Part shown: in pieces, positions 3,249-45,231 of the stretch
How the letters are laid out: each line of letters begins with the position of its first letter
How positions within the stretch are numbered: position 1 is the stretch's first letter
Virus record (IMG/VR): IMGVR_UViG_3300027295_000004
DNA from: a virus
Lineage: Duplodnaviria > Heunggongvirae > Uroviricota > Caudoviricetes
DNA: 64,000 bases
Direction: 5' to 3' (one strand)
Notes under the pieces: model-generated
Told to the model about the DNA's origin: nothing
Database searches by the model: none
The model's input: the letters and a program-made list of their open reading frames with translations, nothing else
Position numbers and translations under genes: made by a program

Positions 3249-3271
3249 ACAATACTATAGCTTAGGGCGTC

Positions 3272-3898: not shown

Positions 3899-3921
3899 AC
3901 AATACTATAGATTAGGGCGTC

Positions 3922-4299: not shown

Positions 4300-4334
4300 A
4301 CAATACTATAGCTTAGGGCGTAGTCGATCTCAAC

Positions 4335-4835: not shown

Positions 4836-4850
4836 ATAAAAATATTCGGA

Positions 4851-13553: not shown

Positions 13554-13593
13554 GTAGTTAATATAGCTCGAGGTGTGATGTGTATCAACTATT

Positions 13594-13944
13594 TTAGCAT
13601 TTAAGCCAGCGCCATCTTTTATGTCGAACTGCCCATTTTCGTGGGATCCATGACAAAATTTTATTGACAAACGACATGACAACTTTGTTGTATTTATACT
13701 CAGTTGCATCCCCTTGTTTCCATACGACGATATGGTCGGGCACCACTGTTGGTCTGTTATTGCCTATGCGATAGACTCGATTCCAATATACAATATCTCT
13801 ATATGGAGACACCCAGCCTTGGAACCTATCATATCGTGCTGTTAATGTGTCGTAGCTTCTTCTGGAGAAACTTCGTTCGGCATAGTGCCCATCTTCATGA
13901 TAGACATATATCGTTGCATTTCCGAAATCATTAAGGGGATTCAT
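13594..13944 (-). CDS. Hypothetical protein (116 aa)
   Basis: ORF. Confidence 0.4.
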   Translation of the reverse strand: MNPLNDFGNATIYVYHEDGHYAERSFSRRSYDTLTARYDRFQGWVSPYRDIVYWNRVYRIGNNRPTVVPDHIVVWKQGDATEYKYNKVVMSFVNKILSWIPRKWAVRHKRWRWLKC

Positions 13945-16576: not shown

Positions 16577-17281
16577 TTATTCAGTGTAGTGGTACATATA
16601 CGCTTCATGGCAATCAACGCAGCGGAATTTGGTATTCTCAACGAATGCGGTTGCTGATTCATGGAAGTGACCAAAGAACCAATGCTTTGGTTTAGTTAGT
16701 TGATACAGCTTATCCATATCTTCATTTTCAATCTTGAGATCCTGTTCCAGATCTTTATCAGCCACCATCATCGATTTGACAAAGTTATTAATACCAAAAA
16801 GACCCGAGATCGGGGGGCGGGTATGAGTTACTACAGCATCGTATGTTTCGTATGCAAAATTCTCATTAAGATAGAACGTTTCATTTTTCCACCAAGTAGG
16901 AATGCTAGTATTATATCTATCAATCCGATCAATCGATACTGCACCGCCTACAAGAAGAATTTTCTTACCAAGCAATTCAAGAACAGTATAGTCGGGGAGC
17001 AATTCGATATTGTCATACCCTCCTATTGTCTTCCTAGTATTAAAGTATCCTGGGTCATCATGGTTTCCACGAATGACATACAAGTGACTATTCGATTCAG
17101 CAAGGAACTTGTGAAGTGGTTTGAGTAATTTTGGGTACTCATGATCCTCAAAGAAACCAATACCAAAATCCCCCACATGGATGATATGAGCATTCTCGAT
17201 TTGATTTCGCTTAAGCTTAATAGCAAAAAGACCAACATCTCCGTGAATGTCTCCAGCAATAATAATTTTATCTTTTGTCAT
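16577..17281 (-). CDS. Calcineurin-like metallophosphoesterase
   Basis: Motifs GDIHGD, GDFGIG, GNHDD and GHFHE (binuclear metallophosphatase signature). Confidence 0.7.
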   Translation of the reverse strand: MTKDKIIIAGDIHGDVGLFAIKLKRNQIENAHIIHVGDFGIGFFEDHEYPKLLKPLHKFLAESNSHLYVIRGNHDDPGYFNTRKTIGGYDNIELLPDYTVLELLGKKILLVGGAVSIDRIDRYNTSIPTWWKNETFYLNENFAYETYDAVVTHTRPPISGLFGINNFVKSMMVADKDLEQDLKIENEDMDKLYQLTKPKHWFFGHFHESATAFVENTKFRCVDCHEAYMYHYTE

Positions 17282-24867: not shown

Positions 24868-24956
24868 GGGTTCTTTTCCTGACGGTGGACTGTAAATCCA
24901 TTGCCGTGTTATGTCAGGCGGTTCGGCAGAAGGTTCAACTCCTTGAGGACCCACCA
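24868..24956 (+). tRNA. Atypical tRNA-like gene (GUA Tyr-type anticodon hairpin; truncated D-arm; ~27-nt variable region)
   Basis: Acceptor gggttct/aggaccc-a-cca; T-arm gaagg-ttcaact-ccttg; anticodon hairpin gtgga-ctgtaaa-tccat. The D region is only 8-9 nt and can instead pair with the variable region (cctgac/gtcagg). Confidence 0.35.
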
Positions 24957-24965
24957 ATTTCAAAT

Positions 24966-25042
24966 GGGGGTGCATGTACTAAGGCTAGCGAGACTGATTT
25001 GCAATCAGACTGTTGTGGGTTCGATTCCCACCATCTCCACCA
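24966..25042 (+). tRNA. tRNA (anticodon probably UGC, Ala); D-arm pairing is poor
   Basis: Acceptor gggggtg/catctcc-a-cca; T-arm gtggg-ttcgatt-cccac; anticodon loop tttgcaa. Confidence 0.45.
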
Positions 25043-25046
25043 ATTT

Positions 25047-25139
25047 GGATGATTAAGCAGACAAGCGTGCTGCATCTGTTTGGAAGACAGATTGATCTAG
25101 TGATCCTAGGTTGGGGTGCAAGTCCTCATTCATCCGCCA
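25047..25139 (+). tRNA. tRNA-Ser (GGA), class II, with a non-canonical T-loop TGCAAGT
   Basis: Acceptor ggatgat/ttcatcc-g-cca; anticodon tctgt-ttggaag-acaga; long variable arm; D-loop lacks GG. Confidence 0.55.
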
Positions 25140-25145
25140 CTTTCT

Positions 25146-25221
25146 GGTGTTGTATTTTAATCGGCAAATTGCTATCCTGTCACGATAGATGATGCGGGTT
25201 CGAATCCCGTCAGCACCGCCA
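25146..25221 (+). tRNA. tRNA-Asp (GUC)
   Basis: Acceptor ggtgttg/cagcacc-g-cca; anticodon ctatc-ctgtcac-gatag; T-arm gcggg-ttcgaat-cccgt. Confidence 0.65.
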
Positions 25222-25227
25222 ATTTAT

Positions 25228-25320
25228 GGGTAGCTAAACAGACAAGCGCGCTGTAACCGCCTTGAAAGCGGATTGATCTAGTGATCCTAGGTTGGGGTGC
25301 AAGTCCTCAGTTACCCGCCA
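25228..25320 (+). tRNA. tRNA-Ser (UGA), class II, non-canonical T-loop TGCAAGT
   Basis: Acceptor gggtagc/gttaccc-g-cca; anticodon loop cttgaaa. Confidence 0.55.
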
Positions 25321-25464
25321 ATTAAGCATCAACTATCCACACTTTATGAGGAAATCCTCACAAGCTATCCCTTATATGGCTCTGGTCAAACATGGGCTTG
25401 TGCATGTTTGTAGATGATAACAGTGCTCACTGGAAAATAGCTAACTCTTAGTGGAGCACATTTC

Positions 25465-25538
25465 GGTCTTTTAGTTTAATGGTAAAACGACGCACTTGTA
25501 ATGCGTTGATTCCGGTTCGACTCCGGACAGGACCTCCA
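25465..25538 (+). tRNA. tRNA-Thr (UGU)
   Basis: ggtcttt-ta-gttt-aatggta-aaac-g-acgca-cttgtaa-tgcgt-..-tccgg-ttcgact-ccgga-caggacc-t-cca. Confidence 0.65.
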
Positions 25539-25547
25539 TTTCTTTTT

Positions 25548-25623
25548 ACGTGCTAATGTCCCAAGGCAGGCGAGTTGGACTCCAAATCCGACTGGGTCAG
25601 TTCGATTCTGACAGCACGTGCCA
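25548..25623 (+). tRNA. tRNA-Trp (CCA)
   Basis: Acceptor acgtgct/agcacgt-g-cca; anticodon ttgga-ctccaaa-tccga; T-arm gtcag-ttcgatt-ctgac. Confidence 0.55.
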
Positions 25624-25628
25624 ATTTC

Positions 25629-25702
25629 GGCCTATTAGTTTAGTGGTAAAACAATTTACTCGTAATGAATAGTCCCCAGCTCAATTCTGGGATAGGCCTC
25701 CA
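25629..25702 (+). tRNA. tRNA-Thr (CGU)
   Basis: Acceptor ggcctat/ataggcc-t-cca; anticodon attta-ctcgtaa-tgaat. Confidence 0.6.
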
Positions 25703-25708
25703 TCTTAT

Positions 25709-25785
25709 GCGGTTGTAGCTCAATTTGGTAGAGCGCATCCTTGCCAAGGATATTGTCGCAGGTTCGAATCCTGTCAGCCGCACCA
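25709..25785 (+). tRNA. tRNA-Gly (GCC)
   Basis: Canonical: gcggttg-ta-gctcaatttggtagagc-..ttgccaa..-gcagg-ttcgaat-cctgt-cagccgc-a-cca. Confidence 0.7.
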
Positions 25786-25787
25786 AT

Positions 25788-25880
25788 GGGTAGTTAAGCA
25801 GACAAGCGTACTGCAACCGTCTCGAAAGCGGATTGATCTAGCGAACCTAGGTTGGGGTGCAAGTCCTCAGCTACCCGCCA
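25788..25880 (+). tRNA. tRNA-Ser (CGA), class II, non-canonical T-loop TGCAAGT
   Basis: Acceptor gggtagt/gctaccc-g-cca; anticodon loop ctcgaaa. Confidence 0.55.
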
Positions 25881-25888
25881 TTTTATAT

Positions 25889-25962
25889 GGTCCTTTAGCA
25901 TAATGGTAATGCATCGGATTTTGATTCCGACTATGATGGTTCAATTCCATCAGGGACTTCCA
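25889..25962 (+). tRNA. tRNA-Gln (UUG)
   Basis: D gcat-aatggta-atgc; anticodon tcgga-ttttgat-tccga; T gatgg-ttcaatt-ccatc. Confidence 0.6.
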
Positions 25963-25972
25963 ATTTCTTTTG

Positions 25973-26047
25973 GCTCGAATAGCACAATGGTGAGTGTATT
26001 TCCTTGGTATGGAAGGGATGTGGGTTCGATTCCCACTTTGAGCCCCA
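25973..26047 (+). tRNA. tRNA-Thr (GGU)
   Basis: Acceptor gctcgaa/tttgagc-c-cca; anticodon tttcc-ttggtat-ggaag. Confidence 0.55.
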
Positions 26048-26050
26048 CAC

Positions 26051-26122
26051 GCCTCTGTAATTCAAAAGTAGAATGGTTGTTTCATAAGCAACACGGTGAA
26101 GGTGCAAGTCCTTCCGGAGGTA
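26051..26122 (+). tRNA. tRNA-Met/Ile2 (CAU), non-canonical T-loop TGCAAGT, D-loop without GG; CCA not encoded
   Basis: gcctctg-ta-attc-aaaagta-gaat-g-gttgt-ttcataa-gcaac-acggt-gaagg-tgcaagt-ccttc-cggaggt-a. Confidence 0.5.
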
Positions 26123-26131
26123 CTAATTTAT

Positions 26132-26800
26132 ATGCCAAACACTGCAATTTTATTCACAGGAAACGTACACGGTGACACCATTGATGTTCTAATTGAACAG
26201 ACCAAAAATCAGACAAATAAAATAGCATCAATATGGGAAAATGAATCACCTGAATATGTCGACAAATTAAAAAACAACAATTTTAAAATCATTTACAATA
26301 GTGTAAAACAACAAGAAATATATAAACCACAGTTTATTACTGTACATAATGGGTTGAAGTATCTTAAAGAAAACGGATATGAATATGTATTAAGGACTCG
26401 TTTTGATATACTATGTCAAGATTATGATAGATATTTAGAGATACTGGCGAAGTCGTATCGCGAAAAGCTAACAGCTATCGCTGGCATAGAGACATCTACC
26501 ACTTATTTTTTAGATATTATTATAGGTGGGAAAATTGATGAGATGCTTAAATTTTTCGCATTGCAGCCAAACTATGATGTTAGGTACTATGAAAAATTTT
26601 TAATAGAAAATTACTCAAATAAAACAAATCTAACTAAAGAAGAAATAAGAAATATATTGAATTTCTCGTTAAGTGATTGTGTCAATAACAACATTGAATT
26701 CATATGGTACAGGCCAATTTCGTGGAAGTCGCAAACGATCACGTGGCCAGACATGAGAGTAATTAATGAGTATTGCAAAAATAATTTTATCTGGATGTAG
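26132..26800 (+). CDS. Hypothetical protein (223 aa) encoded by a markedly AT-rich ORF inserted within the tRNA array
   Basis: ORF 26096-26800 trimmed to the ATG at 26132 to clear the tRNA; K/N/I/Y-rich composition unlike flanking DNA; its stop overlaps the 5' end of tRNA-Pro. Confidence 0.45.
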   Translation: MPNTAILFTGNVHGDTIDVLIEQTKNQTNKIASIWENESPEYVDKLKNNNFKIIYNSVKQQEIYKPQFITVHNGLKYLKENGYEYVLRTRFDILCQDYDRYLEILAKSYREKLTAIAGIETSTTYFLDIIIGGKIDEMLKFFALQPNYDVRYYEKFLIENYSNKTNLTKEEIRNILNFSLSDCVNNNIEFIWYRPISWKSQTITWPDMRVINEYCKNNFIWM

Positions 26801-26867
26801 TTCAGCTTGGTAGAACATTTGATTTGGGATCAAAAGGTCGTGGGTTCGAATCCCACCATCCAGACCA
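26791..26867 (+). tRNA. tRNA-Pro (UGG)
   Basis: ctggatg-ta-gttc-agcttggta-gaac-a-tttga-tttggga-tcaaa-aggtc-gtggg-ttcgaat-cccac-catccag-a-cca. Confidence 0.65.
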
Positions 26868-26870
26868 ATT

Positions 26871-26878
26871 TATAAATA
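26871..26878 (+). promoter_or_regulatory. TATAAATA motif (T4-late-promoter-like) between tRNA-Pro and the second tRNA-Met
   Basis: Exact match. Confidence 0.25.
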
Positions 26879-26924
26879 AACAAGTTGATAACAACACAAC
26901 CACGTGTTAATATTAACTACACAT

Positions 26925-26999
26925 TGCGGGATAGAGCAGTAGTAGCTCAACTGGCTCATAACCAGGAGGTCGGTGGTGCAAGTCCATCTCCCGCAACCA
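26925..26999 (+). tRNA. tRNA-Met/Ile2 (CAU), second copy, non-canonical T-loop TGCAAGT, D-loop agtagta
   Basis: tgcggga-ta-gagc-agtagta-gctc-..-ctcataa-..-ggtgg-tgcaagt-ccatc-tcccgca-a-cca. Confidence 0.5.
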
Positions 27000-27013
27000 A
27001 TTTCAACATATGT

Positions 27014-27109
27014 GCTCCTGTAGCTCAATTGGTAGAGCGGAAAGCTTATACCTTTCGTATGCCCCAGATTAGGGCGCGGTTGTCGGTTCGAATCCGGCCA
27101 GGAGTACCA
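27014..27109 (+). tRNA. Atypical tRNA with anticodon UAU (Ile-type) and a ~25-nt variable region
   Basis: gctcctg-ta-gctcaattggtagagc-g-gaaag-cttatac-ctttc-[25 nt]-gtcgg-ttcgaat-ccggc-caggagt-a-cca. Confidence 0.4.
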
Positions 27110-27127
27110 ATTTCAACGAAAACAAAA

Positions 27128-27451
27128 ATGACTAAAAAAGATCGCAACAAACCCACATATGAGTGGATTGATGTAAATGCTGGTGAAGCATATTACTCTT
27201 TATATGCATATTGTTTAGACAACGCCGATCAACTAAACGGCCATCCTGGAATTCAAATCGGGTGTTATCATTACGCCATCAGCAGAAAGATGACACCAAA
27301 AAAACCATTCAAAGTACATGCTAGGAAAATGAATCAAGGGCATATATGGAGAGGCTGGGGTAGATCTTACATTAAAGTAGATCGCGACATTCAGGTAGAT
27401 AACAAAAAAAGATTCTGGCCTACACACAATCAAATTTCAATAGAAGTTTAA
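27128..27451 (+). CDS. Hypothetical protein (107 aa)
   Basis: ORF 26885-27451 trimmed to the Met at 27128; the upstream part overlaps two tRNAs. Confidence 0.4.
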   Translation: MTKKDRNKPTYEWIDVNAGEAYYSLYAYCLDNADQLNGHPGIQIGCYHYAISRKMTPKKPFKVHARKMNQGHIWRGWGRSYIKVDRDIQVDNKKRFWPTHNQISIEV

Positions 27452-27460
27452 CCTGCACAT

Positions 27461-27535
27461 GCCTCTGTAATTCAATGGTAGAATAACAGACTTTTAATCT
27501 GAAGGTTATGGGTTCGAGTCCCATCGGAGGCACCA
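27461..27535 (+). tRNA. tRNA-Lys (UUU)
   Basis: gcctctg-ta-attc-aatggta-gaat-..-cttttaa-..-atggg-ttcgagt-cccat-cggaggc-a-cca. Confidence 0.6.
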
Positions 27536-27604
27536 ATTTATACAGTCAACGCTCTGATATATTGCTATAGTATATAAGTAATAATTTAATTTAATTTTTA
27601 ATAT

Positions 27605-27679
27605 TCCTCAGTGGCAGACTAGCAATGCACCCGACTGTTAATCGGGATTATGAAGGAGCGTAACCTTCCTGAGGAGCCA
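27605..27679 (+). tRNA. tRNA-Asn (GUU) with an aberrant T-loop (AGCGTAA) and a D-loop without GG
   Basis: Acceptor tcctcag/ctgagga-g-cca; anticodon cccga-ctgttaa-tcggg. Confidence 0.45.
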
Positions 27680-27743
27680 ATTTATAACTGCGATCAAAAC
27701 ACAAAGCAGTTGCTAATAACAACACCCGATGTGAATATATAAC

Positions 27744-27992
27744 ATGAAGAAAACTCAACGCCAATGTGCAGACGACTTAGTCAACTACATCATTCGTAAA
27801 GAACTTATTCACATCAAGTCAGAATATCTTCTTCGCATTGAAAATAGTGAATGGATGGCATGTGGCACAGAGGATAAAACCAGAATTGAAGAATTGCAAC
27901 GGGACATTCAAAGTGCTCGAGAATATATTAGTGTACTGGATGAGTACATCACTAAATTTGAAAAAGTAGAAACCTCGCCATTGTTCAATTAA
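27744..27992 (+). CDS. Hypothetical protein (82 aa)
   Basis: ORF inside the tRNA array. Confidence 0.4.
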   Translation: MKKTQRQCADDLVNYIIRKELIHIKSEYLLRIENSEWMACGTEDKTRIEELQRDIQSAREYISVLDEYITKFEKVETSPLFN

Positions 27993-28280
27993 ATGGAACA
28001 ACTAATAGAACCATTCTGCTACATTGCAAATGTCAAAGTTACAGATAAAAATGGCAAACAAGGGAATAGACCGTTAATTAGATTTCAAGCACCTGACTCG
28101 GGATTAAATTTTAATACTTATTACGTTGCGTGCGCATGTGCTTCTGTATACAACATGTTCCTTGATTATATTGCCGAGAAAGATCAAATAGAATTTGAAA
28201 AACAATTCAAAGAGATATTCAATAAGCTTATCGATGAAGGTCTAATAGAAATCATGAAAGACAAACCAATTTCGGGTTGA
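27993..28280 (+). CDS. Hypothetical protein (95 aa)
   Basis: ORF; its stop overlaps the 5' end of tRNA-Phe. Confidence 0.4.
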   Translation: MEQLIEPFCYIANVKVTDKNGKQGNRPLIRFQAPDSGLNFNTYYVACACASVYNMFLDYIAEKDQIEFEKQFKEIFNKLIDEGLIEIMKDKPISG

Positions 28281-28349
28281 TAGCAATGATGGTTCATGCG
28301 TCTGTCTGAAGAACAGATCATCTCGGTTCGAATCCGAGTCAACCCACCA
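28274..28349 (+). tRNA. tRNA-Phe (GAA)
   Basis: gggttga-ta-..-tctgt-ctgaaga-acaga-tcat-ctcgg-ttcgaat-ccgag-tcaaccc-a-cca. Confidence 0.65.
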
Positions 28350-28354
28350 CTTAT

Positions 28355-28429
28355 GTCGCCGTCGTCTAATGGTTAGGACGGAGGATTTTCATTCCTCAAA
28401 TGGGGGTTCGATTCCCCTCGGCGATACCA
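28355..28429 (+). tRNA. tRNA-Glu (UUC)
   Basis: gtcgccg-t-cgtc-taatggttag-gacg-gagga-ttttcat-tcctc-..-ggggg-ttcgatt-cccct-cggcgat-a-cca. Confidence 0.65.
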
Positions 28430-28439
28430 ATTTCAATAC

Positions 28440-28534
28440 GGAGTGTAAACCAAACAGGCGCGTTGGAACTGTTTGCTAAACAGATTGTGGTTTTGCTAAA
28501 AAGCCATCTGGTTCGAGTCCAGTGCACTCCGCCA
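28440..28534 (+). tRNA. tRNA-Ser (GCU), class II with a long variable arm
   Basis: Acceptor ggagtgt/gcactcc-g-cca; anticodon loop ttgctaa; variable-arm stem ggtttt/aaagcc. Confidence 0.6.
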
Positions 28535-28540
28535 CTTTAT

Positions 28541-28615
28541 TGTCTCGTAGCTCATCGGTAGAGCACTTCCCTGATAAGGAATAGGTAGCTGGTTCGATTC
28601 CAGTCGGGACAACCA
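28541..28615 (+). tRNA. tRNA-Ile (GAU)
   Basis: tgtctcg-ta-gctc-atcggtag-agc-..-ctgataa-..-gctgg-ttcgatt-ccagt-cgggaca-a-cca. Confidence 0.6.
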
Positions 28616-28637
28616 ATTTCAATAACCAATACTAAAA

Positions 28638-28865
28638 ATGAAAAGATATCTTTTGATAGCAGGCCACGACTATTATCCTGGTGCGGGTACAAGCAATTGG
28701 GTTGATTCGTATGATTCATACGAAGAGGCTCTCAATATGGTTGAAACAATGGAAGAAAATAACTACGGTAGGTGTGGTTATACTATTGGAGATATGCCAT
28801 GTGATTGGTATGAAATAGTAGATTTAAACGAATGGAGTCCTCGCAATTCAATTTCAACATATTAA
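28638..28865 (+). CDS. Hypothetical protein (75 aa)
   Basis: ORF. Confidence 0.4.
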   Translation: MKRYLLIAGHDYYPGAGTSNWVDSYDSYEEALNMVETMEENNYGRCGYTIGDMPCDWYEIVDLNEWSPRNSISTY

Positions 28866-28870
28866 ATCCA

Positions 28871-29968
28871 ATGCAAACACTTTACAAATACAGTACCAAA
28901 GGCGCACCTCTTCAGTGGAGCATTGAAGTAGAAGGTGACAAGTATCGAACGATTGAAGGGCAAGTAGGAGGCAAGCTGACTACTTCGCAATGGACTATTT
29001 GTTTCGCAAAGAATGTTGGTAAGGCAAACGCAACTACGGCAGAAGAACAAGCTCTGAAAAAGGCTGAATCTATCTATCGCAAGAAAAAGGACGCCGGATT
29101 CAGCGAGACATTGGAATCATCTGGTGCGAATTTCTTTGAACCGATGCTTGCTCATAAATGGGATCAGCACCCTCTAGCACCTGGTACACCATTGGCTCTT
29201 CAGCCCAAACTAGACGGACATAGATGCATTGCGTATCTTAAAGATGGTAAAGTATATCTCCAAAGTCGAAAGGGCAAACAGATCACTTCATGCACCCATA
29301 TTGAAAATGCTCTTGAAGATTTATTCAAAGAAAATCAATCTTTTATTCTAGATGGTGAGCTTTACAATCATACCATTCCGTTTGAAAAGATTTCGGGGTT
29401 AGTTCGTCAAATTGAACACACTGCGGAATGCAAAGATATTCAATATCATGTTTATGATCTTGTTGATCTAAATAACCGACAACTAACTTTCGACGAAAGA
29501 AATTGGCAATTGGTTACAAAGCAATTACGGCTTTGTAATAATGAGCATATAAACATGGTTACTACATTGTTCGTAAATGGCAGCGATGCTATTGCGGAGT
29601 ATGAAAGTGAGTGTGTGGAAGATGGATATGAAGGTATCATGATTCGTGATACTACATCTATCTATGAGAATAAAAGATCGAAAGGACTTCTGAAACTCAA
29701 ACAATTCCAAGACGAAGAATTCAATATTGTCGAAATCAAAGAAGGTCAAGGTAATCGCACCGGACTAGCCACAGAAGCAGTATTGGCTCTTGAAGACGGT
29801 AGAGCTTTTTCTACTGGAGTTATTGGCAACGAAGAATATGCACGTGGCTTATTTAATGACCGCGAAAAAGTCAAAGGGATGCTAGCCACAGTAAAATACC
29901 AAGGAAAGACTGCACAGGGGATTCCTAGATTTGGTAAAATGAAAATCGTAAGATATGAAGGATTCTAA
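28871..29968 (+). CDS. ATP-dependent DNA ligase
   Basis: Motif I KLDGHR, motif III ILDGELY, motif IV EGIMIRD, motif V LLKLK; start set to the Met at 28871 after the upstream stop. Confidence 0.85.
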   Translation: MQTLYKYSTKGAPLQWSIEVEGDKYRTIEGQVGGKLTTSQWTICFAKNVGKANATTAEEQALKKAESIYRKKKDAGFSETLESSGANFFEPMLAHKWDQHPLAPGTPLALQPKLDGHRCIAYLKDGKVYLQSRKGKQITSCTHIENALEDLFKENQSFILDGELYNHTIPFEKISGLVRQIEHTAECKDIQYHVYDLVDLNNRQLTFDERNWQLVTKQLRLCNNEHINMVTTLFVNGSDAIAEYESECVEDGYEGIMIRDTTSIYENKRSKGLLKLKQFQDEEFNIVEIKEGQGNRTGLATEAVLALEDGRAFSTGVIGNEEYARGLFNDREKVKGMLATVKYQGKTAQGIPRFGKMKIVRYEGF

Positions 29969-29970
29969 GT

Positions 29971-30363
29971 ATGAATATATCTTTTAATCATTTCCATAAA
30001 CTATTATCAGATCCAAGGTTTATAGTAAAATACAAGCATCCTGACTGTACTGATGTTCGGGAGTGTAGATTCAAACAAAACCTTCTTAAATTTTTTAAAG
30101 GCACAAACACTCTGTATGTTGATGCTGATCTGTGGTTTCTGGAAGAATACAACAAAGCAATATCTTATGACGAAGAATCGGGTTCTTTCATTCTTCGCAA
30201 GAAAGAATATGACATGGAAGAAACTGATGAATTTGAAGTAGTCGAGGGGTGGGACGGATATTGTGAAACGAGACCGATTATAAAAGTACTCGACACATGG
30301 AAACTAATTCCGATTACGTTCACATTTTACGCAAGAGCATCAACAAAAGACTTGATAGGCTAA
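29971..30363 (+). CDS. Hypothetical protein (130 aa)
   Basis: ORF. Confidence 0.45.
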   Translation: MNISFNHFHKLLSDPRFIVKYKHPDCTDVRECRFKQNLLKFFKGTNTLYVDADLWFLEEYNKAISYDEESGSFILRKKEYDMEETDEFEVVEGWDGYCETRPIIKVLDTWKLIPITFTFYARASTKDLIG

Positions 30364-30387
30364 CAGCCCCGTTGTATAATTGTTTAC

Positions 30388-30463
30388 GCGGTAGTAGCTC
30401 AATTGGTAGGGCGTCTGACTTCCACTCAGAATGTTGCAGGTTCGAGTCCTGTCTACCGCACCA
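30388..30463 (+). tRNA. tRNA-Gly (UCC)
   Basis: gcggtag-ta-gctcaattggtagggc-g-tctga-cttccac-tcaga-atgtt-gcagg-ttcgagt-cctgt-ctaccgc-a-cca. Confidence 0.65.
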
Positions 30464-30492
30464 CATTCAACCAAATCAACCAAATCAACATA

Positions 30493-30627
30493 ATGGATAT
30501 AGACTCAATTATCACTACAATACCAAAATTGATTTATTTCACAAGCATTGGATTTTTAGTTATATTGTACTTTGCATTGATTATCAAAGCATTGGTTATC
30601 GCACTCGATGCAATCATTGATTTCTAA
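30493..30627 (+). CDS. Small hydrophobic (membrane) protein (44 aa)
   Basis: ORF 30403-30627 trimmed to the Met at 30493 downstream of the tRNA. Confidence 0.3.
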   Translation: MDIDSIITTIPKLIYFTSIGFLVILYFALIIKALVIALDAIIDF

Positions 30628-30630
30628 AAT

Positions 30631-30927
30631 ATGAGTGGAGGGCATTTTGATTACAATCAATTTCGATTGACTGACATTTCGAGGGAAATCATGTCCCTTA
30701 TTAATAGCAATGAAGTTCCAAATGAATTCAGGCAGGCTCGGAAGTATCCTACTGATATTTTAGATAAGTTTGAAGTAGCAATGATTATATTAGATACTGC
30801 TGCAGATATAGTACATCATATCGATTATCTTGTTGAAGGAGATATTGGAGAAGATACATTCAGGGAACTATATAACAAAGCAATCAAGGATTTTTGTACC
30901 AAACTTGCAGAACATCAACTTACTTAA
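30631..30927 (+). CDS. Hypothetical protein (98 aa)
   Basis: ORF. Confidence 0.4.
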   Translation: MSGGHFDYNQFRLTDISREIMSLINSNEVPNEFRQARKYPTDILDKFEVAMIILDTAADIVHHIDYLVEGDIGEDTFRELYNKAIKDFCTKLAEHQLT

Positions 30928-30941
30928 CCTTAAATACTCTT

Positions 30942-31415
30942 ATGCCCACTAACGACCAATCTCTCATCTGTGAAGCGTACGCAGATCAAATCGCATCAAA
31001 TGCATCCGACTCTGAAGAATATTCGATTTTTATCGAAGCAGAACTAACTGCACCAGCGAAGACATCCAAAGCAATTCAAGCATTTGAAAACATTCTCAAA
31101 CGATATGATCGAAATGGTGCAATAGCATTAACTCCCGGGGGTGTATATACACGACCTTCAGGTGACAAGACTGTAGTTGAATATGATGCATATATTAAAC
31201 GAGGGCGAAGATACATCAATCCAGAAGAAGACAATTCGCGTTATCTTCCGTCATATATCGAATCAGCTATCTCTGACTTGTATGATGACCTTGAAGGTTA
31301 TAACGGTACAGATGACATCGAATTGGAAGGCGAAGATGGAGATCCTCCAGAACACGTCTCAAGCTTCGAGATTCCTGGTGAGAGGGTGACTATCAGATAC
31401 GTATTGAGCTACTAA
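30942..31415 (+). CDS. Hypothetical acidic protein
   Basis: ORF 30894-31415 trimmed to the Met at 30942. Confidence 0.4.
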   Translation: MPTNDQSLICEAYADQIASNASDSEEYSIFIEAELTAPAKTSKAIQAFENILKRYDRNGAIALTPGGVYTRPSGDKTVVEYDAYIKRGRRYINPEEDNSRYLPSYIESAISDLYDDLEGYNGTDDIELEGEDGDPPEHVSSFEIPGERVTIRYVLSY

Positions 31416-31506
31416 TTTAAATTTGGCATGGACGACTAGACGGACGCATGTCGAGGATATCCAACATCAGTTCAACTAGTGACTGCGGGAGAGAACCGCA
31501 CAATTT

Positions 31507-31582
31507 GGATGGCGACCCGGCTAGTGAAGGGCTACGTCTGCAAAACGTTTGTTGTTGAGTGCGATTCTCAAGCCATCCTCCA
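31507..31582 (+). tRNA. tRNA-Cys (GCA) with a non-canonical T-loop TGCGATT
   Basis: ggatggc-ga-ccc-ggctagtgaa-ggg-c-tacgt-ctgcaaa-acgtt-tgttg-ttgag-tgcgatt-ctcaa-gccatcc-t-cca. Confidence 0.5.
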
Positions 31583-31709
31583 ATTTTAAAACATGCACAC
31601 TATACATACAACCACTACAAACAATCAATCTAAACAAGAAGAGCCCCAACGCACTTCTTTGATGGTAGCTCCTACTAAATTCTATATTTGGTGTAAAAGC
31701 AAATTCAAC

Positions 31710-31937
31710 ATGGCACTAATTTTAAGCATCGGGTTCCTTTTAGTGCAGGGAGTTAATGGGCAAAATTCTTTTCGATTAAATACATTAGGTTCTGACGGGC
31801 CTGATGGTATTTGTGTGCGGAATGGAAATCAATGGGATTGCTATGGGCAACATATTAGCGCACCCGAACCAACGAACCCAGGAGTCCTGATGACAGCAGC
31901 GGGGGTAGCAGTTATGATGAAAAGAAAGAGGCATTAA
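31710..31937 (+). CDS. Small secreted protein with a PEP-CTERM-like C terminus
   Basis: N-terminal signal peptide MALILSIGFLLVQGVNG; C terminus APEPTNPGVLMTAAGVAVMMKRKRH (PEP motif, TM segment, basic tail). Confidence 0.35.
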   Translation: MALILSIGFLLVQGVNGQNSFRLNTLGSDGPDGICVRNGNQWDCYGQHISAPEPTNPGVLMTAAGVAVMMKRKRH

Positions 31938-32036
31938 TTTCTTTTGATTTTTAAAAAACAAACAATAAGATGTTGATTTAACACACACCACAAAGTATAA
32001 TATAAACGAAGATAACATCTTCAACAAAATCAAATT

Positions 32037-32525
32037 ATGAAAACAAAACTACTATCACTAGTAATGGCACTCGCAACACAAATGGCATTTGCAGGCTCTC
32101 CTGTAACACCTCCAACCCCTGCTACACCAGAAGTTGGATCCACAGGATGGGTTTCAAAGGCATTCACAACTGTGGTCCTTGACAATGGTGATGAAACAGT
32201 CGGTGGAGGTTTGAGTCTTGAAGCTCCAGTTGTAGGCGATCTGAAAGCAGAACTTACTGTTGGTGTAGCAGATGACCTTTATACCGTAGGTGGTAATCTT
32301 CTCTATTACGTCCCCGTAGGAGAGAAGCTTTCTGTATATGGCTTGGCGGGCGGTGCTTATGAATTCGATACAGATCAATGGACCGTACGAACCGGTGGCG
32401 GTCTAAGTTATAGTCTTACTAATACCCTCAATCTGTTTGCAGATGCAACCTACAATTTCCTTGTAGAGAATGATGCCAAGGATGGCGTCGTTGCAATTCG
32501 AGCAGGTGTTGGGTTTAAGTTCTGA
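32037..32525 (+). CDS. Outer-membrane beta-barrel protein (OmpA-N/OmpW-like small barrel)
   Basis: Signal peptide MKTKLLSLVMALATQMAFA; alternating amphipathic beta strands; C-terminal GVGFKF with a terminal Phe. Confidence 0.6.
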   Translation: MKTKLLSLVMALATQMAFAGSPVTPPTPATPEVGSTGWVSKAFTTVVLDNGDETVGGGLSLEAPVVGDLKAELTVGVADDLYTVGGNLLYYVPVGEKLSVYGLAGGAYEFDTDQWTVRTGGGLSYSLTNTLNLFADATYNFLVENDAKDGVVAIRAGVGFKF

Positions 32526-32597
32526 TTATACTGATCTGAATAGGCGAACGCCACCTGGTAAAGTGCGTGACAGCCGGAGAGACGGCCTCGTTAATTT

Positions 32598-32672
32598 GGG
32601 TGGTTCGTATAACGGATAGTACGCAACGCTACGGACGTTGAGACAGGGGTTCGATTCCTCTACTGCCCACCA
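32598..32672 (+). tRNA. tRNA-Arg (ACG)
   Basis: gggtggt-tc-gtat-aacggata-gtac-g-caacg-ctacgga-cgttg-agac-agggg-ttcgatt-cctct-actgccc-a-cca. Confidence 0.65.
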
Positions 32673-32675
32673 TAT

Positions 32676-32749
32676 GCCCAGTTCGTTCAACGGATAGGAC
32701 AGCGGTCTTCTAAACCGCGAATAGAGGTTCGATTCCTCTACTGGGTACC
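32676..32749 (+). tRNA. tRNA-Arg (UCU)
   Basis: gcccagt-tc-gttc-aacggata-ggac-a-gcggt-cttctaa-accgc-gaat-agagg-ttcgatt-cctct-actgggt-a-cca. Confidence 0.6.
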
Positions 32750-32760
32750 ATTTTCCATAT

Positions 32761-32837
32761 AGCCACGTGATGTAATTGGTAAACGTGACGGTCTCAAAAA
32801 CTGTTTTCTATGGGTTCGAGTCCCATCGTGGCTACCA
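32761..32837 (+). tRNA. tRNA with anticodon CAA (Leu-type) but a 5-nt variable loop (class I architecture), A73
   Basis: agccacg-tg-atgt-aattggtaa-acgt-g-acggt-ctcaaaa-actgt-tttct-atggg-ttcgagt-cccat-cgtggct-a-cca. Confidence 0.5.
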
Positions 32838-32838
32838 T

Positions 32839-32915
32839 GCCCTGTGTAGCATATTTAGTTAATGTCTTCGCCTGTGAAGCGAACGAAGATGGTGCAATTC
32901 CATCCCAGGGAACCA
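32839..32915 (+). tRNA. tRNA-His (GUG) with a non-canonical T-loop TGCAATT, D-loop without GG and an imperfect acceptor stem
   Basis: Anticodon ttcgc-ctgtgaa-gcgaa; T-arm gatgg-tgcaatt-ccatc; the 5' g at 32839 may be the His G-1. Confidence 0.45.
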
Positions 32916-33065
32916 ATTCGCGAATAGTTAATGGTATCGTTCGAAAGATACTAAAGACTAACTGAGACCCCCATTTCGAAGTTTATAGGTTGAACACCGC
33001 AGTTAATCGGTGCGGGAGGTGTGTTCGAGTGCACACGATGGATCAGGTCTCGACAATTTACATAT

Positions 33066-33139
33066 GCCCGCATAGCCCAATCGGTAGAGGCACTTGACTT
33101 AGGATCAAGAGGTTGGGGGTTCGAATCCCTCTGCGGGTA
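33066..33139 (+). tRNA. tRNA with anticodon UAG (Leu-type) but a 5-nt variable loop, A73, no encoded CCA
   Basis: gcccgca-ta-gcc-caatcggtaga-ggc-a-cttga-cttagga-tcaag-aggtt-ggggg-ttcgaat-ccctc-tgcgggt-a. Confidence 0.5.
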
Positions 33140-33147
33140 CTTTTTAT

Positions 33148-33228
33148 GGGAGTGTTAGCGTAGCGGCCGAACGCACCAGTTTTACACACTGGCAATCATC
33201 ACAGGTTCGAATCCTGTCGCTCCTACCA
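33148..33228 (+). tRNA. tRNA-Val (UAC) with an 8-nt variable region
   Basis: Acceptor gggagtg/cgctcct-a-cca; anticodon ccagt-tttacac-actgg; T-arm acagg-ttcgaat-cctgt. Confidence 0.55.
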
Positions 33229-33234
33229 TTTCAT

Positions 33235-33311
33235 GGCTATATGACGTAATTGGTAAACGTATTGCATTGAGGATGCAAGTTTTGCAGGTTCGAGTCCTGT
33301 TATAGCCACCA
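33235..33311 (+). tRNA. tRNA with anticodon GAG (Leu-type) but a 5-nt variable loop, A73
   Basis: ggctata-tg-acgt-aattggtaa-acgt-a-ttgca-ttgagga-tgcaa-gtttt-gcagg-ttcgagt-cctgt-tatagcc-a-cca. Confidence 0.55.
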
Positions 33312-42173: not shown

Positions 42174-42708
42174 CGAAATTTGTCCAACGTACGACGTAGA
42201 ATCTCCAAATGTCCATTCTTATGTAATCGACTCGGGAAAAAGCAAGATTATATCGCACAATAGTTCTTTAACCCAGAATTCGACTAATGGTATGGAACCA
42301 ATTGTCAGTCTCTTCCAATTCAAAGATGATCGTCAAGGAAGTGCGGCATGGATTGCACCAGGTGCAAAGAAATACGGTAAGTATTATAAATCGGCGTATG
42401 ATTGTACAAATGAAGGAATTATCAAATGTGCTGCAGCTATTACGAAATGGCTGTGCATGGCCGCTAGTACCAATCATTACTACAACTACGGCAATTATGA
42501 GAATAATAAACTTGAAACTACAGACGTTGCGTATGATATTCTTTTATCATACAAATACGGTCTGAAGACTCTTTATTATGCGAAGAACAAACAAATAGTC
42601 TCAGCAGACACAAGTCTTGCTGCGGAAGAAGTCTCAGAAAATGATACATCAGAAAAAGCCGAGTCTTCGGACGATTCTGGATGTGCTACCGGATTTTGCT
42701 CACTATGA
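42145..42708 (+). CDS. nrdA: Split-intein C-fragment (IntC, 39 aa, 42145-42261) fused to the nrdA C-terminal extein
   Basis: MKINRITKSNEICPTYDVESPNVHSYVIDSGKSKIISHN followed by +1 Ser; extein SSLTQNSTNGMEP... continues the conserved NrdA segment (MPxExSSxxSNxTNGxEP), then a C-terminal Cys pair. Confidence 0.8.
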   Translation: MKINRITKSNEICPTYDVESPNVHSYVIDSGKSKIISHNSSLTQNSTNGMEPIVSLFQFKDDRQGSAAWIAPGAKKYGKYYKSAYDCTNEGIIKCAAAITKWLCMAASTNHYYNYGNYENNKLETTDVAYDILLSYKYGLKTLYYAKNKQIVSADTSLAAEEVSENDTSEKAESSDDSGCATGFCSL

Positions 42709-45225: not shown

Positions 45226-45231
45226 GTAAAA

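Follow-up and report, generated by a model that had tools for sequence, protein, structure and literature searches.

The DNA between positions 24,868 and 33,311 of a 64,000-nt viral window (the whole stretch of DNA that was analysed) is crowded with tRNA genes, and raises the question of whether these genes constitute a functional decoding set and of what kind its members are. ARAGORN at default settings, one of the checks proposed in the initial annotation of this locus, finds 28 tRNA genes on the plus strand at 24966–33311, not far fewer than the roughly 31 counted there; Rfam at the gathering score recovers 24 of these plus-strand genes (lowest E-value 3e-14) as well as tRNA-Asn(gtt) at 27605–27676; and ARAGORN with -ps90 adds tRNA-Asn (27605–27679) and tRNA-Cys(gca) (31507–31582). 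Together with a tRNA-Tyr-like gene at 24868, the total is 31 tRNA genes on the plus strand, 29 of which encode CCA, and one on the minus strand, and their sequences fold as tRNAs. The number and the claimed coverage of all 20 amino acids are both borne out, the latter with Tyr, Cys and Asn depending on genes that the predictors score under their default thresholds. The isoacceptor tallies are likewise correct (four Ser, three Thr, two Arg, two Gly, two CAU, Ile GAU and UAU, and 3+1 Leu); the predicted fourth Leu gene on the minus strand is an isolated tRNA-Leu(UAA) of 76 nt (9295–9370; Leu(taa) by ARAGORN default, also Rfam), co-directional with the surrounding minus-strand genes. We confirm the observation of a tRNA array; the array itself is of an ordinary kind, and its members are unusual.

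The genes had been described as a dense array with 4–20-nt spacers. Tight packing is indeed found within five or six blocks, where spacers are 1–14 nt, but density is not uniform: about 12 small ORFs occupy eight gaps of 57–1772 nt, two more gaps of ~145 nt each are non-coding, and only ~2.5 kb of the 8.4-kb interval consists of tRNA genes. In order along the plus strand, called by both ARAGORN and Rfam unless stated otherwise, the Tyr-like gene is followed by tRNA-Ala(UGC) (24966–25042; Rfam tRNA 30.1 bits), tRNA-Ser(GGA) (25047–25139; ARAGORN), tRNA-Asp(GUC) (25146–25221), tRNA-Ser(UGA) (25228–25320; ARAGORN), tRNA-Thr(UGU) (25465–25538), tRNA-Trp(CCA) (25548–25623; ARAGORN, with 25.4 bits in Rfam, under the gathering score), tRNA-Thr(CGU) (25629–25702), tRNA-Gly(GCC) (25709–25785), tRNA-Ser(CGA) (25788–25880; ARAGORN), tRNA-Gln(UUG) (25889–25962), tRNA-Thr(GGU) (25973–26047) and a tRNA(CAU) (26051–26123). 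A 222-aa ORF without family match (26132–26800) overlaps with its end the start of tRNA-Pro(UGG) (26791–26867; Rfam 73.8 bits); a second tRNA(CAU) (26925–26999), tRNA-Ile(UAU) (27014–27109), a 107-aa ORF (27128–27451), tRNA-Lys(UUU) (27461–27535) and tRNA-Asn(GUU) (27605–27679; Rfam 47.9 bits, ARAGORN -ps90) come next. Two ORFs of 82 and 95 aa (27744–28280), the second terminating within tRNA-Phe(GAA) (28274–28349), precede tRNA-Glu(UUC) (28355–28429), tRNA-Ser(GCU) (28440–28534; ARAGORN structure) and tRNA-Ile(GAU) (28541–28615). Beyond three ORFs (28638–30363: a 75-aa T4 Y07C-like ORF, an ATP-dependent DNA ligase at 28832–29968 and a 130-aa ORF) lie tRNA-Gly(UCC) (30388–30463), two ORFs of 98 and 157 aa (30631–31415), tRNA-Cys(GCA) (31507–31582; ARAGORN -ps90) and two ORFs of 114 and 162 aa (31593–32525), the 162-aa product having an N terminus that resembles a signal peptide and weakly matching an outer-membrane beta-barrel family. 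The interval closes with tRNA-Arg(ACG) (32598–32672), tRNA-Arg(UCU) (32676–32750), tRNA-Leu(CAA) (32761–32837), tRNA-His(GUG) (32839–32915), tRNA-Leu(UAG) (33066–33140), tRNA-Val(UAC) (33148–33228; 81 nt with an 8-nt variable loop) and tRNA-Leu(GAG) (33235–33311).

Many of these genes are structurally non-canonical, a point missed in the initial annotation. An A18:G55 swap at the elbow is present in 8 of the 31 genes, compared with 14 of 1,226 tRNAs from other viral arrays: the class-II tRNA-Ser(GGA), (UGA) and (CGA); both tRNA(CAU) genes; tRNA-Asn, with an unusual AGCGUAA T loop; tRNA-Cys, with U73 and a UGCGAUU T loop; and tRNA-His, with A73 and an irregular, possibly 8/4 acceptor stem. The first tRNA(CAU), an elongator Met or Ile2 without encoded CCA, resembles tRNA-Lys(UUU) in its acceptor stem and D arm; the second, with U1–A72, is presumably the initiator, as its acceptor stem and D arm are like those of E. 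coli tRNA-fMet. All four tRNA-Leu are class I, those with anticodons CAA (77 nt, variable loop of 4–5 nt), UAG (75 nt, no encoded CCA) and GAG (77 nt) having A73. tRNA-Ser(GCU), with G73, is of the 8/4 type that Mukai et al. 2017 described, its acceptor stem being 8 bp and its T stem 4 bp long. Several array members belong to non-canonical types seen again in other viral contigs; among them, tRNA-Ile(UAU) stands out most.

By standard wobble rules the set reads 54 of the 61 sense codons, and 60 if U34 reads whole four-codon boxes, CGG being the sole codon covered under neither rule; together with the full range of amino acids, this supports the earlier description of an unusually complete decoding set. 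In codon usage computed from 68 ORFs (16,468 codons) of the window, RSCU is 1.83 for GCA, 2.00 for CCA, 1.71 for ACA, 1.41 for GTA and 2.17 for AGA, each the Watson–Crick codon of its box's only or U34 tRNA. The single U34 tRNAs match the A-ending codons that the phage favours, and only 2.6–6.9% of codons in the window lack a reader by wobble rules. Judged from its sequence, the array is probably a functional phage decoding set.

An alternative main role, which we regard as rather unlikely although it is compatible with codon supply and both can hold, is counter-defence: the array would replace host tRNAs lost during infection to general tRNA decay or to anticodon nucleases (PrrC, RloC, PARIS and retron effectors are candidates), and the odd shapes (the A18:G55 elbow, class-I Leu, 8/4 Ser, rewired Tyr and two-hairpin Ile) would be escape variants to which such nucleases are blind. 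The set is nearly complete and not confined to codons that the phage over-uses, the A18:G55 elbow is rare elsewhere, and the window also encodes an RNA ligase (12528–13709) and a metallophosphoesterase (16577–17281), typical RNA-repair partners; that phage tRNAs evade tRNA-targeting defences is argued in published work (PMC10264068). Against this, most of the genes have canonical anticodon loops.

tRNA-Ile(UAU), 96 nt in length, has an extra hairpin that resembles an anticodon arm: hairpin 1 (GAAAG-CUUAUAC-CUUUC) contains the decoding loop, and hairpin 2 (UGCCC-CAGAUUA-GGGCG) bears GAU and C29–G41. A pattern scan that itself demands YAGAT places this type at a minimum of 119 viral loci, and in bacterial genomes too; 115 of 122 loci examined contain an ARAGORN Ile(tat) of 88–96 nt, with 107 distinct sequences. 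In a second scan of the same part of the collection, in which AGAT was not demanded and which gave a smaller, unbiased sample of about 56 genes, hairpin 2 carries AGAU in ~50 of 56 long Ile(tat) genes and CUGAUUA, CUGAUUU or CCGAUUA in five; with one gene lacking GAU, the triplet is found in 55 of 56. Hairpin 2 has C29–G41 in 86% and C31–G39 in 80%; its 30–40 pair covaries among five pair types with none unpaired; and in register its pairing amounts to 89%, as against 59% in shuffled and 36–48% in slid sequences. C29–G41 is found in 45% of phage tRNA-Ile(GAU), 10% of non-Ile tRNAs and 28% of hairpins 1. With reference to the bacterial Ile identity set (PMC9976931), the two-hairpin tRNAs (A73 in 100%, C4–G69 in 56%, U12–A23 in 77%) are like phage tRNA-Ile(GAU) (63% and 86% for the two pairs) and unlike other tRNAs (33% and 48%).

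Hairpin 1 would act as a normal UAU anticodon arm and read AUA without lysidine, and hairpin 2 may be an anticodon-arm mimic that recruits IleRS and confers isoleucine identity. The identity elements that bacterial IleRS recognises in the anticodon branch are GAU at loop positions 34–36 and C29–G41, both of which hairpin 2 carries; the proposed role is a tentative reading, a possibility rather than an expectation. Against mimicry, hairpin 2 has U37, although t6A37 is a determinant for bacterial IleRS, and it has mostly A33; moreover, for a side arm to contact the anticodon-binding domain of IleRS, both hairpins would have to exchange positions within the L shape, a purely hypothetical rearrangement. 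Six possibly related allo-tRNA(UAU) showed no activity in E. coli in the work of Mukai et al.; the reporter used there depended on serine at the position under test, and charging with isoleucine would likewise have given a negative result.

It is improbable that the extra arm is instead an ordinary class-II variable arm, as in nematode nev-tRNA-Ile(UAU) or allo-tRNAs, with charging by Leu or Ser and AUA recoded or ambiguous, or a mere structural or regulatory appendage. Nematode V-arm tRNAs with a UAU anticodon do receive leucine (PMC3333845), allo-tRNA(UAU) with five-stem junctions exist, mainly in Acidobacteria, the two-hairpin pattern matches many Acidobacteriota genomes, and A73 is compatible with LeuRS. 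However, Leu, Ser and Tyr tRNAs show no sequence conservation in the loops of their variable arms, unlike the GAU of hairpin 2; the D arm is of class-I type with a 4-bp stem; the T stem begins 5–6 nt after hairpin 2, the spacing of a class-I variable loop and not the 1–2 nt of class II; the SerRS element G73 is absent; and the acceptor and D-stem identity pairs agree with tRNA-Ile(GAU).

The Tyr-like gene (24868–24956, plus strand), at whose first nucleotide the initial annotation had begun the array, receives no tRNA call from ARAGORN (default or -ps90) or Rfam; its only Rfam match is to tRNA-Sec, at 26 bits and under threshold, and ARAGORN at -ps70 gives just a nonsense call. Its acceptor stem is 8 bp long and its T stem 4 bp, the anticodon loop reads CUGUAAA, and A73-CCA is present; it lacks a D hairpin, and surrounds its anticodon arm with a 6-bp long-range helix (11–16/46–51). 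Full-length homologues occur in other viral contigs (L027/L032/L040/L103, L210 and L219), every helix being kept via compensatory changes across four lineages. On this comparative evidence, the gene is assigned to a conserved non-canonical tRNA-Tyr(GUA) type.

The two non-coding gaps lie on the plus strand. Gap A (25321–25464), in the first tRNA block, contains several hairpins and ends in CACAUUU; it has no tRNA or Rfam match and a folding z-score of only −1.1, and may be a candidate small RNA processed out of the tRNA transcript. Gap B (32916–33065) comprises a 5′ hairpin and, after it, a tRNA-like cloverleaf in an extended stem (GAGACC/GGUCUC), ends in ACA-AUUU, and has a central loop, CAGUUAAU, that resembles an Asn anticodon loop; its folding z-score is −2.7 (1 of 200 shuffles folds equally well), and it obtains only a weak ARAGORN -ps70 call and no Rfam match.

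We consider it very unlikely that much of the array has decayed, in which case tRNA-Asn, -Cys, -Trp and -Ala, which score low, as well as the Tyr-like gene and both non-coding gaps, would be pseudogenes and the functional set would serve fewer than 20 amino acids. Predictors do miss or poorly score these genes, gap B resembles a degenerate tRNA, and the jumbo phage XacN1 too has a tRNA pseudogene; but the Tyr-like architecture is maintained, acceptor stems are intact, CCA is kept, and discriminators fit the anticodon (U73 for Cys, A73 for Tyr). Low scores go together with the systematic A18:G55 swap, for which covariance models impose a penalty.

The context is phage-like: NrdA, NrdB, ThyX, PhoH, a PHROG ATP-dependent DNA ligase, an RNA ligase and the T4 Y07C-like ORF are encoded, and the flanking genes have distant protein relatives in jumbo phages XacN1 and Xoo-sp13. 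A glycosyltransferase (48085–49338) has as its only phage relatives those of jumbo phages XacN1, Xoo-sp13, CM1 and RAS14 (42–45% identity). No close relative turned up at the DNA level; 28274–29969 is matched with 100% identity by a 1.7-kb JGI metagenome contig (3300028085). The closest described analogue is XacN1, whose ORF-interrupted region has 29 tRNA-like genes for all 20 amino acids. Origin from a bacterial chromosome, plasmid or other mobile element is the least probable reading of all: no virion structural gene was identified within the 64-kb window, the ORFs of 871 and 2490 aa are without phage matches, and bacterial contigs also carry arrays with the two-hairpin tRNA, but gene content and nearest relatives are phage-like, the window has dense short ORFs, long co-oriented gene blocks and 39% G+C throughout, and those bacterial-contig arrays may themselves be prophages.

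We propose that the array is the tRNA region of an uncultivated large phage of lytic type, in which tight tRNA blocks alternate with small ORFs of early type and a gene for DNA ligase. The plus-strand transcription unit that includes it would start at a divergent point near 22600. Promoter-like and terminator-like sites are no commoner in the region than in shuffled sequence, the best σ70-like site (30352–30380, upstream of tRNA-Gly(UCC)) agreeing with the consensus at 11 of 12 positions. A CCA-AUUU trailer follows 13 of the 29 CCA-ending genes; by ARAGORN calls, ATTT follows 10 of 27 here and 5% of 1,373 tRNAs from other viral arrays. The tRNAs would be transcribed as polycistronic precursors, with 5′ ends cut by host RNase P and the conserved A/U-rich trailer by an RNase E-type endonuclease, and would be charged by host synthetases. 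Processed and charged in this way, they would give the phage a private decoding set, with which its genes, of 39% G+C, stay translatable regardless of how the host tRNA pool is composed or what state it is in.

Independent gene predictors agree with the initial annotation of the window, which had described a cluster of tRNA genes on the plus strand at 24868–33311 and a lone leucine-type gene on the minus strand. ARAGORN in default mode called 28 plus-strand tRNA genes (24966–33311) and tRNA-Leu(UAA) on the minus strand (9295–9370), so that automated prediction did not return far fewer genes than had been read by eye; a slightly relaxed run (-ps90) gave 30 plus-strand genes, adding Asn(GUU) at 27605, an Rfam match that the default run had missed, and Cys(GCA) at 31507–31582, in which the acceptor stem is clean, the loop is CUGCAAA and the discriminator base is U73, that of CysRS. 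Rfam recovered 24 plus-strand array genes at the gathering score (best E-values, 3e-14). The annotated total of 31 + 1 genes is reached once a tyrosine-like gene at 24868–24956, called by no predictor, is added to the ARAGORN/Rfam set, and the isoacceptor tallies of the annotation are the same as ours. CCA is encoded by 29 of the 31 plus-strand genes, the exceptions being the first CAU-anticodon tRNA (26051–26123) and Leu(UAG). The picture of a dense array with short spacers holds inside blocks of genes, where spacers measure 1–14 nt, but not across the whole interval, which contains eight gaps of 57–1772 nt with about 12 ORFs and two more of ~145 nt that are non-coding.

The genes of the window lie on the minus strand up to ~22570, on the plus strand from 22675 to 44422, and on the minus strand again thereafter; because the plus-strand block spans the array, the array is co-oriented with its transcription unit, and the lone Leu(UAA) is likewise co-oriented with the minus-strand genes around it. 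The array encloses an ATP-dependent DNA ligase (28832–29968, plus strand; Pfam 4e-24, PHROG 4e-75) and a 75-aa ORF with a family match to T4 Y07C; the remaining ORFs inside the array gave no family match. Elsewhere the window encodes NrdA, NrdB, ThyX, PhoH, an RNA ligase, a metallophosphoesterase, a Band 7 protein and glycosyltransferases, and no virion structural genes were seen within its 64 kb. The flanking genes and the nearest relatives are phage-like: matches to the glycosyltransferase at 48085–49338 are limited to the jumbo phages XacN1, Xoo-sp13, CM1 and RAS14 (42–45% identity), and the genomes of these single-protein relatives measure 309–385 kb. These observations support a phage source, probably a large one.

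None of 50,697 phage records matched the 8.6-kb interval in a near-identity DNA search, distant blastn gave isolated single-tRNA matches only, exact words from the Ser body and from the Ile(UAU) arm had no matches, and no comparison locus had more than two tRNAs in common with the array. The only exact match is a 1.7-kb contig of JGI metagenome 3300028085, 100% identical to 28274–29969. Relatives of the DNA ligase were considered as possible markers of homologous arrays and rejected, as they comprise one viral and one metagenome locus (38% identity) with 3 and 0 tRNAs. The region is a phage tRNA array of a known general kind, clustered on one strand, from a lineage without sequenced relatives; the initial annotation was correct in what it found, and its interpretation of the array is supported.

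Several other features of the window were observed in passing. The RNA ligase (12528–13709, minus strand; PF09414 with a PHA02142 OB fold) has homologues in numerous large phages, one of them a 735-kb metagenomic phage, and could form an RNA or tRNA repair pair with a calcineurin-like phosphoesterase (16577–17281, minus strand) in the same window. A run of at least 10 small paralogous ORFs at 293–5273 (minus strand), with exactly 23 nt between neighbours and a variable number of 63-nt (21-aa) repeats at 60–89% identity, is a tandem family of putative repeat proteins. Two large minus-strand ORFs (49397–52012, 871 aa; 55325–62797, 2490 aa) had no protein-level match in the 50,697 phage records, and the 871-aa ORF had no Pfam domain.

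The array encodes a near-complete decoding set, as had been proposed, with all 20 amino acids represented. By standard wobble rules its anticodons read 54 of the 61 sense codons, and, if U34 is allowed to read entire four-codon boxes, 60 of the 61; CGG has no reader under either rule. Codon usage in 68 long ORFs of the window (16,468 codons) favours A-ending codons, which are the cognate codons of the U34 tRNAs of the phage (RSCU of 1.83 for GCA, 2.00 for CCA, 1.71 for ACA, 1.41 for GTA and 2.17 for AGA), and only 2.6–6.9% of the codons in the window are without a phage-encoded reader.

The most unusual member of the array is Ile(UAU) at 27014–27109, a gene of 96 nt with two hairpins between its D and T arms. 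In order, it consists of an acceptor stem, a class-I D arm, G26, hairpin 1 (GAAAG-CUUAUAC-CUUUC, the decoding UAU arm), a GUA linker, hairpin 2 (UGCCC-CAGAUUA-GGGCG, the extra arm with GAU in its loop), a CGGUU segment, a T arm and A73-CCA; the acceptor and T stems are 7/5, the D stem is 4 bp and the D loop is 8 nt. A first sample came from loci that had been collected for another reason; its long Ile(UAU) genes, from five independent lineages, all carried AGAU in the hairpin 2 loop, and its four short Ile(UAU) genes had the plain class-I form. A targeted scan with a pattern that requires AGAT (CTTATA..YAGAT..GGTTCRANTCC) detected the two-hairpin arrangement in at least 119 viral loci; among the matches listed, ARAGORN called an Ile(tat) tRNA of 88–96 nt in 115 of the 122 loci examined, representing 107 distinct sequences. 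Bacterial matches to the pattern were found in Acidobacteriota, Rhodobacteraceae, Pseudoxanthomonas and Planctomycetota, both in tRNA arrays and as single genes.

As an unbiased control, the scan was repeated over the same stretch of the collection without the AGAT requirement. The matches listed contained ~56 long Ile(UAU) genes and 57 background matches outside any tRNA; ~50 of the long genes had AGAU, five had CUGAUUA, CUGAUUU or CCGAUUA, and one was without GAU. GAU at positions 34–36 of the hairpin 2 loop is nearly invariant (55/56 in this unbiased sample), and position 33 is mostly A. The hairpin 2 stem is real: within the family, C29–G41 occurs in 86% and C31–G39 in 80%, and pair 30–40 is always paired, with five pair types occupying it. 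In a MAFFT alignment of 31 sequences, 89% of the cells of the stem are paired, vs. 59% after shuffling (0 of 500 shuffles as high) and 36–48% when the 3′ partners are slid.

Bacterial IleRS recognizes an identity set comprising A73, C4–G69, U12–A23, C29–G41, G34 or k2C34, A35, U36, t6A37 and A38 (PMC9976931). The three acceptor and core elements (A73, C4–G69 and U12–A23) are all present in the gene at 27014–27109. Across long Ile(UAU) genes, phage Ile(GAU) genes and other tRNAs, respectively, A73 occurs in 100%, 97% and 53%, C4–G69 in 56%, 63% and 33%, and U12–A23 in 77%, 86% and 48%. Hairpin 1, with U34 and A29–U41, lacks the anticodon-branch elements, whereas hairpin 2 has G34, A35, U36, A38 and C29–G41, all conserved, and U rather than A at position 37. 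C29–G41 is found in 86% of the hairpins 2 and 28% of the hairpins 1 of long Ile(UAU) genes, compared to 45% of phage Ile(GAU) and 10% of non-Ile tRNAs. Judged by these family frequencies of C29–G41 and GAU against the identity set, the anticodon-branch identity elements lie on hairpin 2; the only loop fit for decoding (C32, U33, A37) is that of hairpin 1. Hairpin 2 is separated from the T stem by 5–6 nt, a spacing like that of a class-I variable loop, so hairpin 2 topologically occupies the normal position of an anticodon arm and hairpin 1 looks inserted.

We propose, tentatively and at somewhat less than even confidence, that these genes form a widespread class of tRNAs with two anticodon arms in which hairpin 1 would decode and hairpin 2 would be recognized by IleRS. 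Hairpin 1 (UAU) would read AUA on the ribosome; hairpin 2 would copy the anticodon arm of tRNA-Ile(GAU) in disabled form, retaining GAU, C29–G41 and A38 but carrying A33 and U37; and hairpin 2, as an anticodon-arm mimic, would give isoleucine identity to an AUA reader that is independent of lysidine. This proposal has two weak points: hairpin 2 has U37, and the two hairpins would have to exchange roles between the synthetase and the ribosome. The comparative evidence on the two-hairpin Ile(UAU) is strong, and the mechanism proposed for hairpin 2, read from sequence comparison, is plausible. The class itself, seen in at least 119 viral loci and many bacterial genomes, is so far without functional interpretation, and we found no description of a conserved GAU-bearing extra arm in the literature searched.

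A published group with a UAU anticodon is allo-tRNA(UAU), an abundant type that includes "five-stem-junction" forms and occurs mostly in Acidobacteria, according to two reports (PMC5389517; Krahn et al. 2020, PMC7609411). Acidobacteria likewise hold many copies of the two-hairpin pattern, and these copies may overlap with the allo-tRNA(UAU) of Mukai et al.. However, allo-tRNA(UAU) is defined by an 8/4 or 9/3 architecture, a long Sec-like D stem and G73 or U73; Ile(UAU) of the window, with 7/5 stems, A73 and a D arm of class I, falls outside this definition, and the available portions of the published text report no conserved GAU loop for allo-tRNA(UAU) (PMC5389517; PMC7609411). The two reports regard the group as serine-type and probably non-translational (PMC5389517; PMC7609411). 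Serine identity was assumed by Mukai et al. (PMC5389517), in whose serine-requiring reporter six species were inactive. A tRNA charged with isoleucine would also fail that reporter. A Ser- or Leu-type variable arm is a disfavoured account of hairpin 2, which lies 5 nt (CGGUU) from the T stem in a tRNA with a 4-bp D stem, outside class-II architecture, where the spacing is 1–2 nt and the D stem 3 bp. Pairing of the hairpin 2 loop GAUU with AAUC of the T loop was rejected, as in the alignment U36 never changes, whereas position 59 of the T loop is free to vary.

Class-I tRNA-Ile(UAU) is also known from Mycoplasma mobile and lactic acid bacteria (PMC3575796; references in PMC9976931), where, as in the window, AUA is read by an unmodified-type UAU anticodon and not by lysidine-CAU. 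Those organisms use ordinary 76-nt tRNAs and an adapted IleRS, whereas the tRNA of the window has a second hairpin with the GAU identity set. The nematode nev-tRNA-Ile(UAU) has a long extra arm alongside its UAU anticodon (PMC3333845), but it is eukaryotic, has a leucine-type class-II scaffold and is charged by LeuRS, and a conserved GAU in its arm is not described.

Ile(UAU) is accompanied by other departures from canonical tRNA structure. All four genes with Leu anticodons are 75–77 nt long with variable loops of 4–5 nt, short of the ~85–87 nt of class-II tRNA-Leu; all four have A73, as class-II Leu does, and their D loops, AAUUGGUAA and CAAUGGCAGA, resemble those of T4 and E. coli tRNA-Leu. 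Of 36 Leu tRNAs sampled from viral arrays, 15 are short, and comparable genes carry a tRNA-Leu annotation in GenBank phage records; on these two grounds the class-I Leu type is recurrent in phages, and no description of it was found in the literature searched. Ser(GCU) at 28440–28534 has, in the ARAGORN structure, an 8-bp acceptor stem, a 4-bp T stem, a 7-bp variable arm and G73, and is of the (8/4) tRNA-Ser type that Mukai et al. (2017, PMC5389517) described, with tRNA-His, from phage tRNA clusters. Three features of the array resemble the types of that study: 8/4 pairing with G73 and a long variable arm in Ser(GCU), A73 in His, and the 8/4 stems of the tyrosine-like gene.

Eight of the 31 genes—three Ser, both CAU, Asn, Cys and His, starting at 25047, 25228, 25788, 26051, 26925, 27605, 31507 and 32839—share a coordinated change at the elbow: the D loop has AG replacing GG and, in 8/8, T-loop positions 54–56 are N-G-C replacing U-U-C, which amounts to a swap of the G18:Ψ55 tertiary contact to A18:G55. 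The other 23 genes have D-loop GG together with UUC or CUC, and the elbow swap accounts for the low Rfam scores of the eight. In viral loci selected without regard to this trait, 14 of 1,226 distinct tRNAs have the N-G-C T loop, and all 14 have AG and none GG; of the tRNAs with UC in the T loop, 1,175/1,180 have GG. Outside the window the swap is present in viral comparison loci (L124–L311), with both changes always together, and no description of it was found in the searchable literature. The CAU tRNA at 26051–26123 and Lys(UUU) at 27461–27535 have a common acceptor stem (GCCUCUG/CGGAGG) and D stem and differ in elbow type, which suggests a recent duplication with a change of anticodon.

The tyrosine-like gene at 24868–24956 has a rewired core. 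Its acceptor stem is 8 bp, its T stem is 4 bp and it ends in A73-CCA; in place of the D hairpin and long variable arm of class-II tRNA-Tyr, residues 11–16 pair with 46–51 in a 6-bp long-range helix that encloses the anticodon arm (5-bp stem, loop CUGUAAA). BLAST against loci fetched for other reasons recovered homologues in L027/L032/L040/L103, L210 and L219, in which the four helices are kept through many compensatory changes—the long-range helix is CCUGAC/GUCAGG here, CUCUGC/GCAGAG in the L040 group and CCCGCC/GGUGGG in L219—and GUA in a canonical 7-nt loop (CUGUAAA) and A73 are kept in all four lineages. A scan for long-armed Tyr found normal class-II Tyr only. To judge from this covariation, the gene represents a conserved non-canonical tRNA-Tyr type rather than a chance hairpin.

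The non-coding interval at 32916–33065 folds better than shuffled sequence (z = −2.7; 1 of 200 shuffles as good) and contains a cloverleaf-like element within an extended stem, with a loop, CAGUUAAU, that resembles an Asn anticodon loop with A33; the interval at 25321–25464 folds no better than shuffled sequence (z = −1.1). Lenient Rfam searches and the mitochondrial mode of ARAGORN gave nothing in either, and neither has a homologue among the loci compared. Both may represent degenerate tRNAs; alternatively, they may be small stable RNAs of the sort present in the T4 cluster.

AUUU directly follows CCA in 13 of the 29 CCA-ending plus-strand genes and also terminates the interval at 32916–33065 (ACA-AUUU); among genes called by ARAGORN in default mode, the trailer is present in 10/27 here vs. 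5% of 1,373 tRNAs in other viral arrays. An A/U-rich site one nucleotide past CCA would be consistent with RNase E cleavage as known for E. coli tRNA precursors. Two hairpins that resemble each other, each followed by AAUUU, end ORF-containing gaps: GCGG-GAGAGAA-CCGC at 31485–31506 (plus strand), directly upstream of tRNA-Cys, and GCCG-GAGAGA-CGGC at 32573–32597 (plus strand), directly upstream of Arg(ACG). These may be processing or termination signals. A scan for promoters and terminators found sites no more common than in shuffled sequence; the best σ70-like site, TTGATA-17-TATAAT at 30352–30380 (plus strand), matches at 11/12 positions and ends 8 nt before Gly(UCC). A weaker σ70-like site with a TG extension (26885–26913, plus strand) precedes the initiator-like CAU tRNA.

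The closest described counterpart of the array is the tRNA region of the Xanthomonas jumbo phage XacN1 (Yoshikawa et al. 2018, PMC5852040), where ~29 tRNA-like genes, some of unusual length, lie on one strand with interleaved small ORFs and together account for all 20 amino acids. Both phages have a Band 7 gene near the region, and the glycosyltransferase at 48085–49338 of the window is 44% identical to its XacN1 counterpart. There is no DNA similarity between the two, however, and the XacN1 genes are spread over 20 kb inside a 66-kb terminal repeat. Unlike those of the window, Leu (85 and 87 nt) and Tyr (87 nt) of XacN1 are normal class II, and XacN1 alone has two CUA suppressor tRNAs and class-II-shaped Lys, Gly, Thr, Cys and Asn, and is without Ile(UAU). 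The class-II-shaped set of XacN1 (locus L005) comprises Lys(CUU), Gly(UCC), Thr(UGU), Cys(GCA) and Asn(GUU), at 30563–30651, 39053–39138, 42569–42659, 45202–45290 and 45979–46067 of that locus; these genes measure 86–91 nt, and the loops of their long extra arms are mostly GNRA-like and are not anticodon mimics. Forms of Lys(CUU), Cys and Asn similar to those of XacN1 occur in IMG/VR loci L007 and L015.

The tRNA clusters of T4 and T5 are polycistronic, have very short spacers and are processed by host RNase P and 3′ nucleases. T4 encodes 8 tRNAs only, among them a class-II tRNA-Leu and an AUA reader with a CAU anticodon that needs lysidine; its cluster also contains two small stable RNAs without assigned function, a possible parallel to the two non-coding intervals described here.

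As a gene set, the array is one more near-complete phage decoding set, and it shows how far a phage can be free of the host tRNA pool. Its composition matters more: an elbow swap in a quarter of the genes, Leu tRNAs without a long arm, a rewired Tyr, and Ile(UAU). The G18:Ψ55 elbow contact is near-universal, and the extra arm of the AUA reader looks like a spare GAU anticodon arm. The main interest of the array lies in this concentration of non-canonical tRNA architectures, above all the two-hairpin Ile(UAU). If IleRS reads hairpin 2, the tRNA would be a natural separation of identity and decoding onto different hairpins; AUA would be decoded without lysidine synthetase in any host, which bears on TilS-free AUA decoding; the "inactive" allo-tRNA(UAU) group would be reinterpreted as isoleucine tRNAs; and the arrangement would have a bearing on orthogonal tRNA design.
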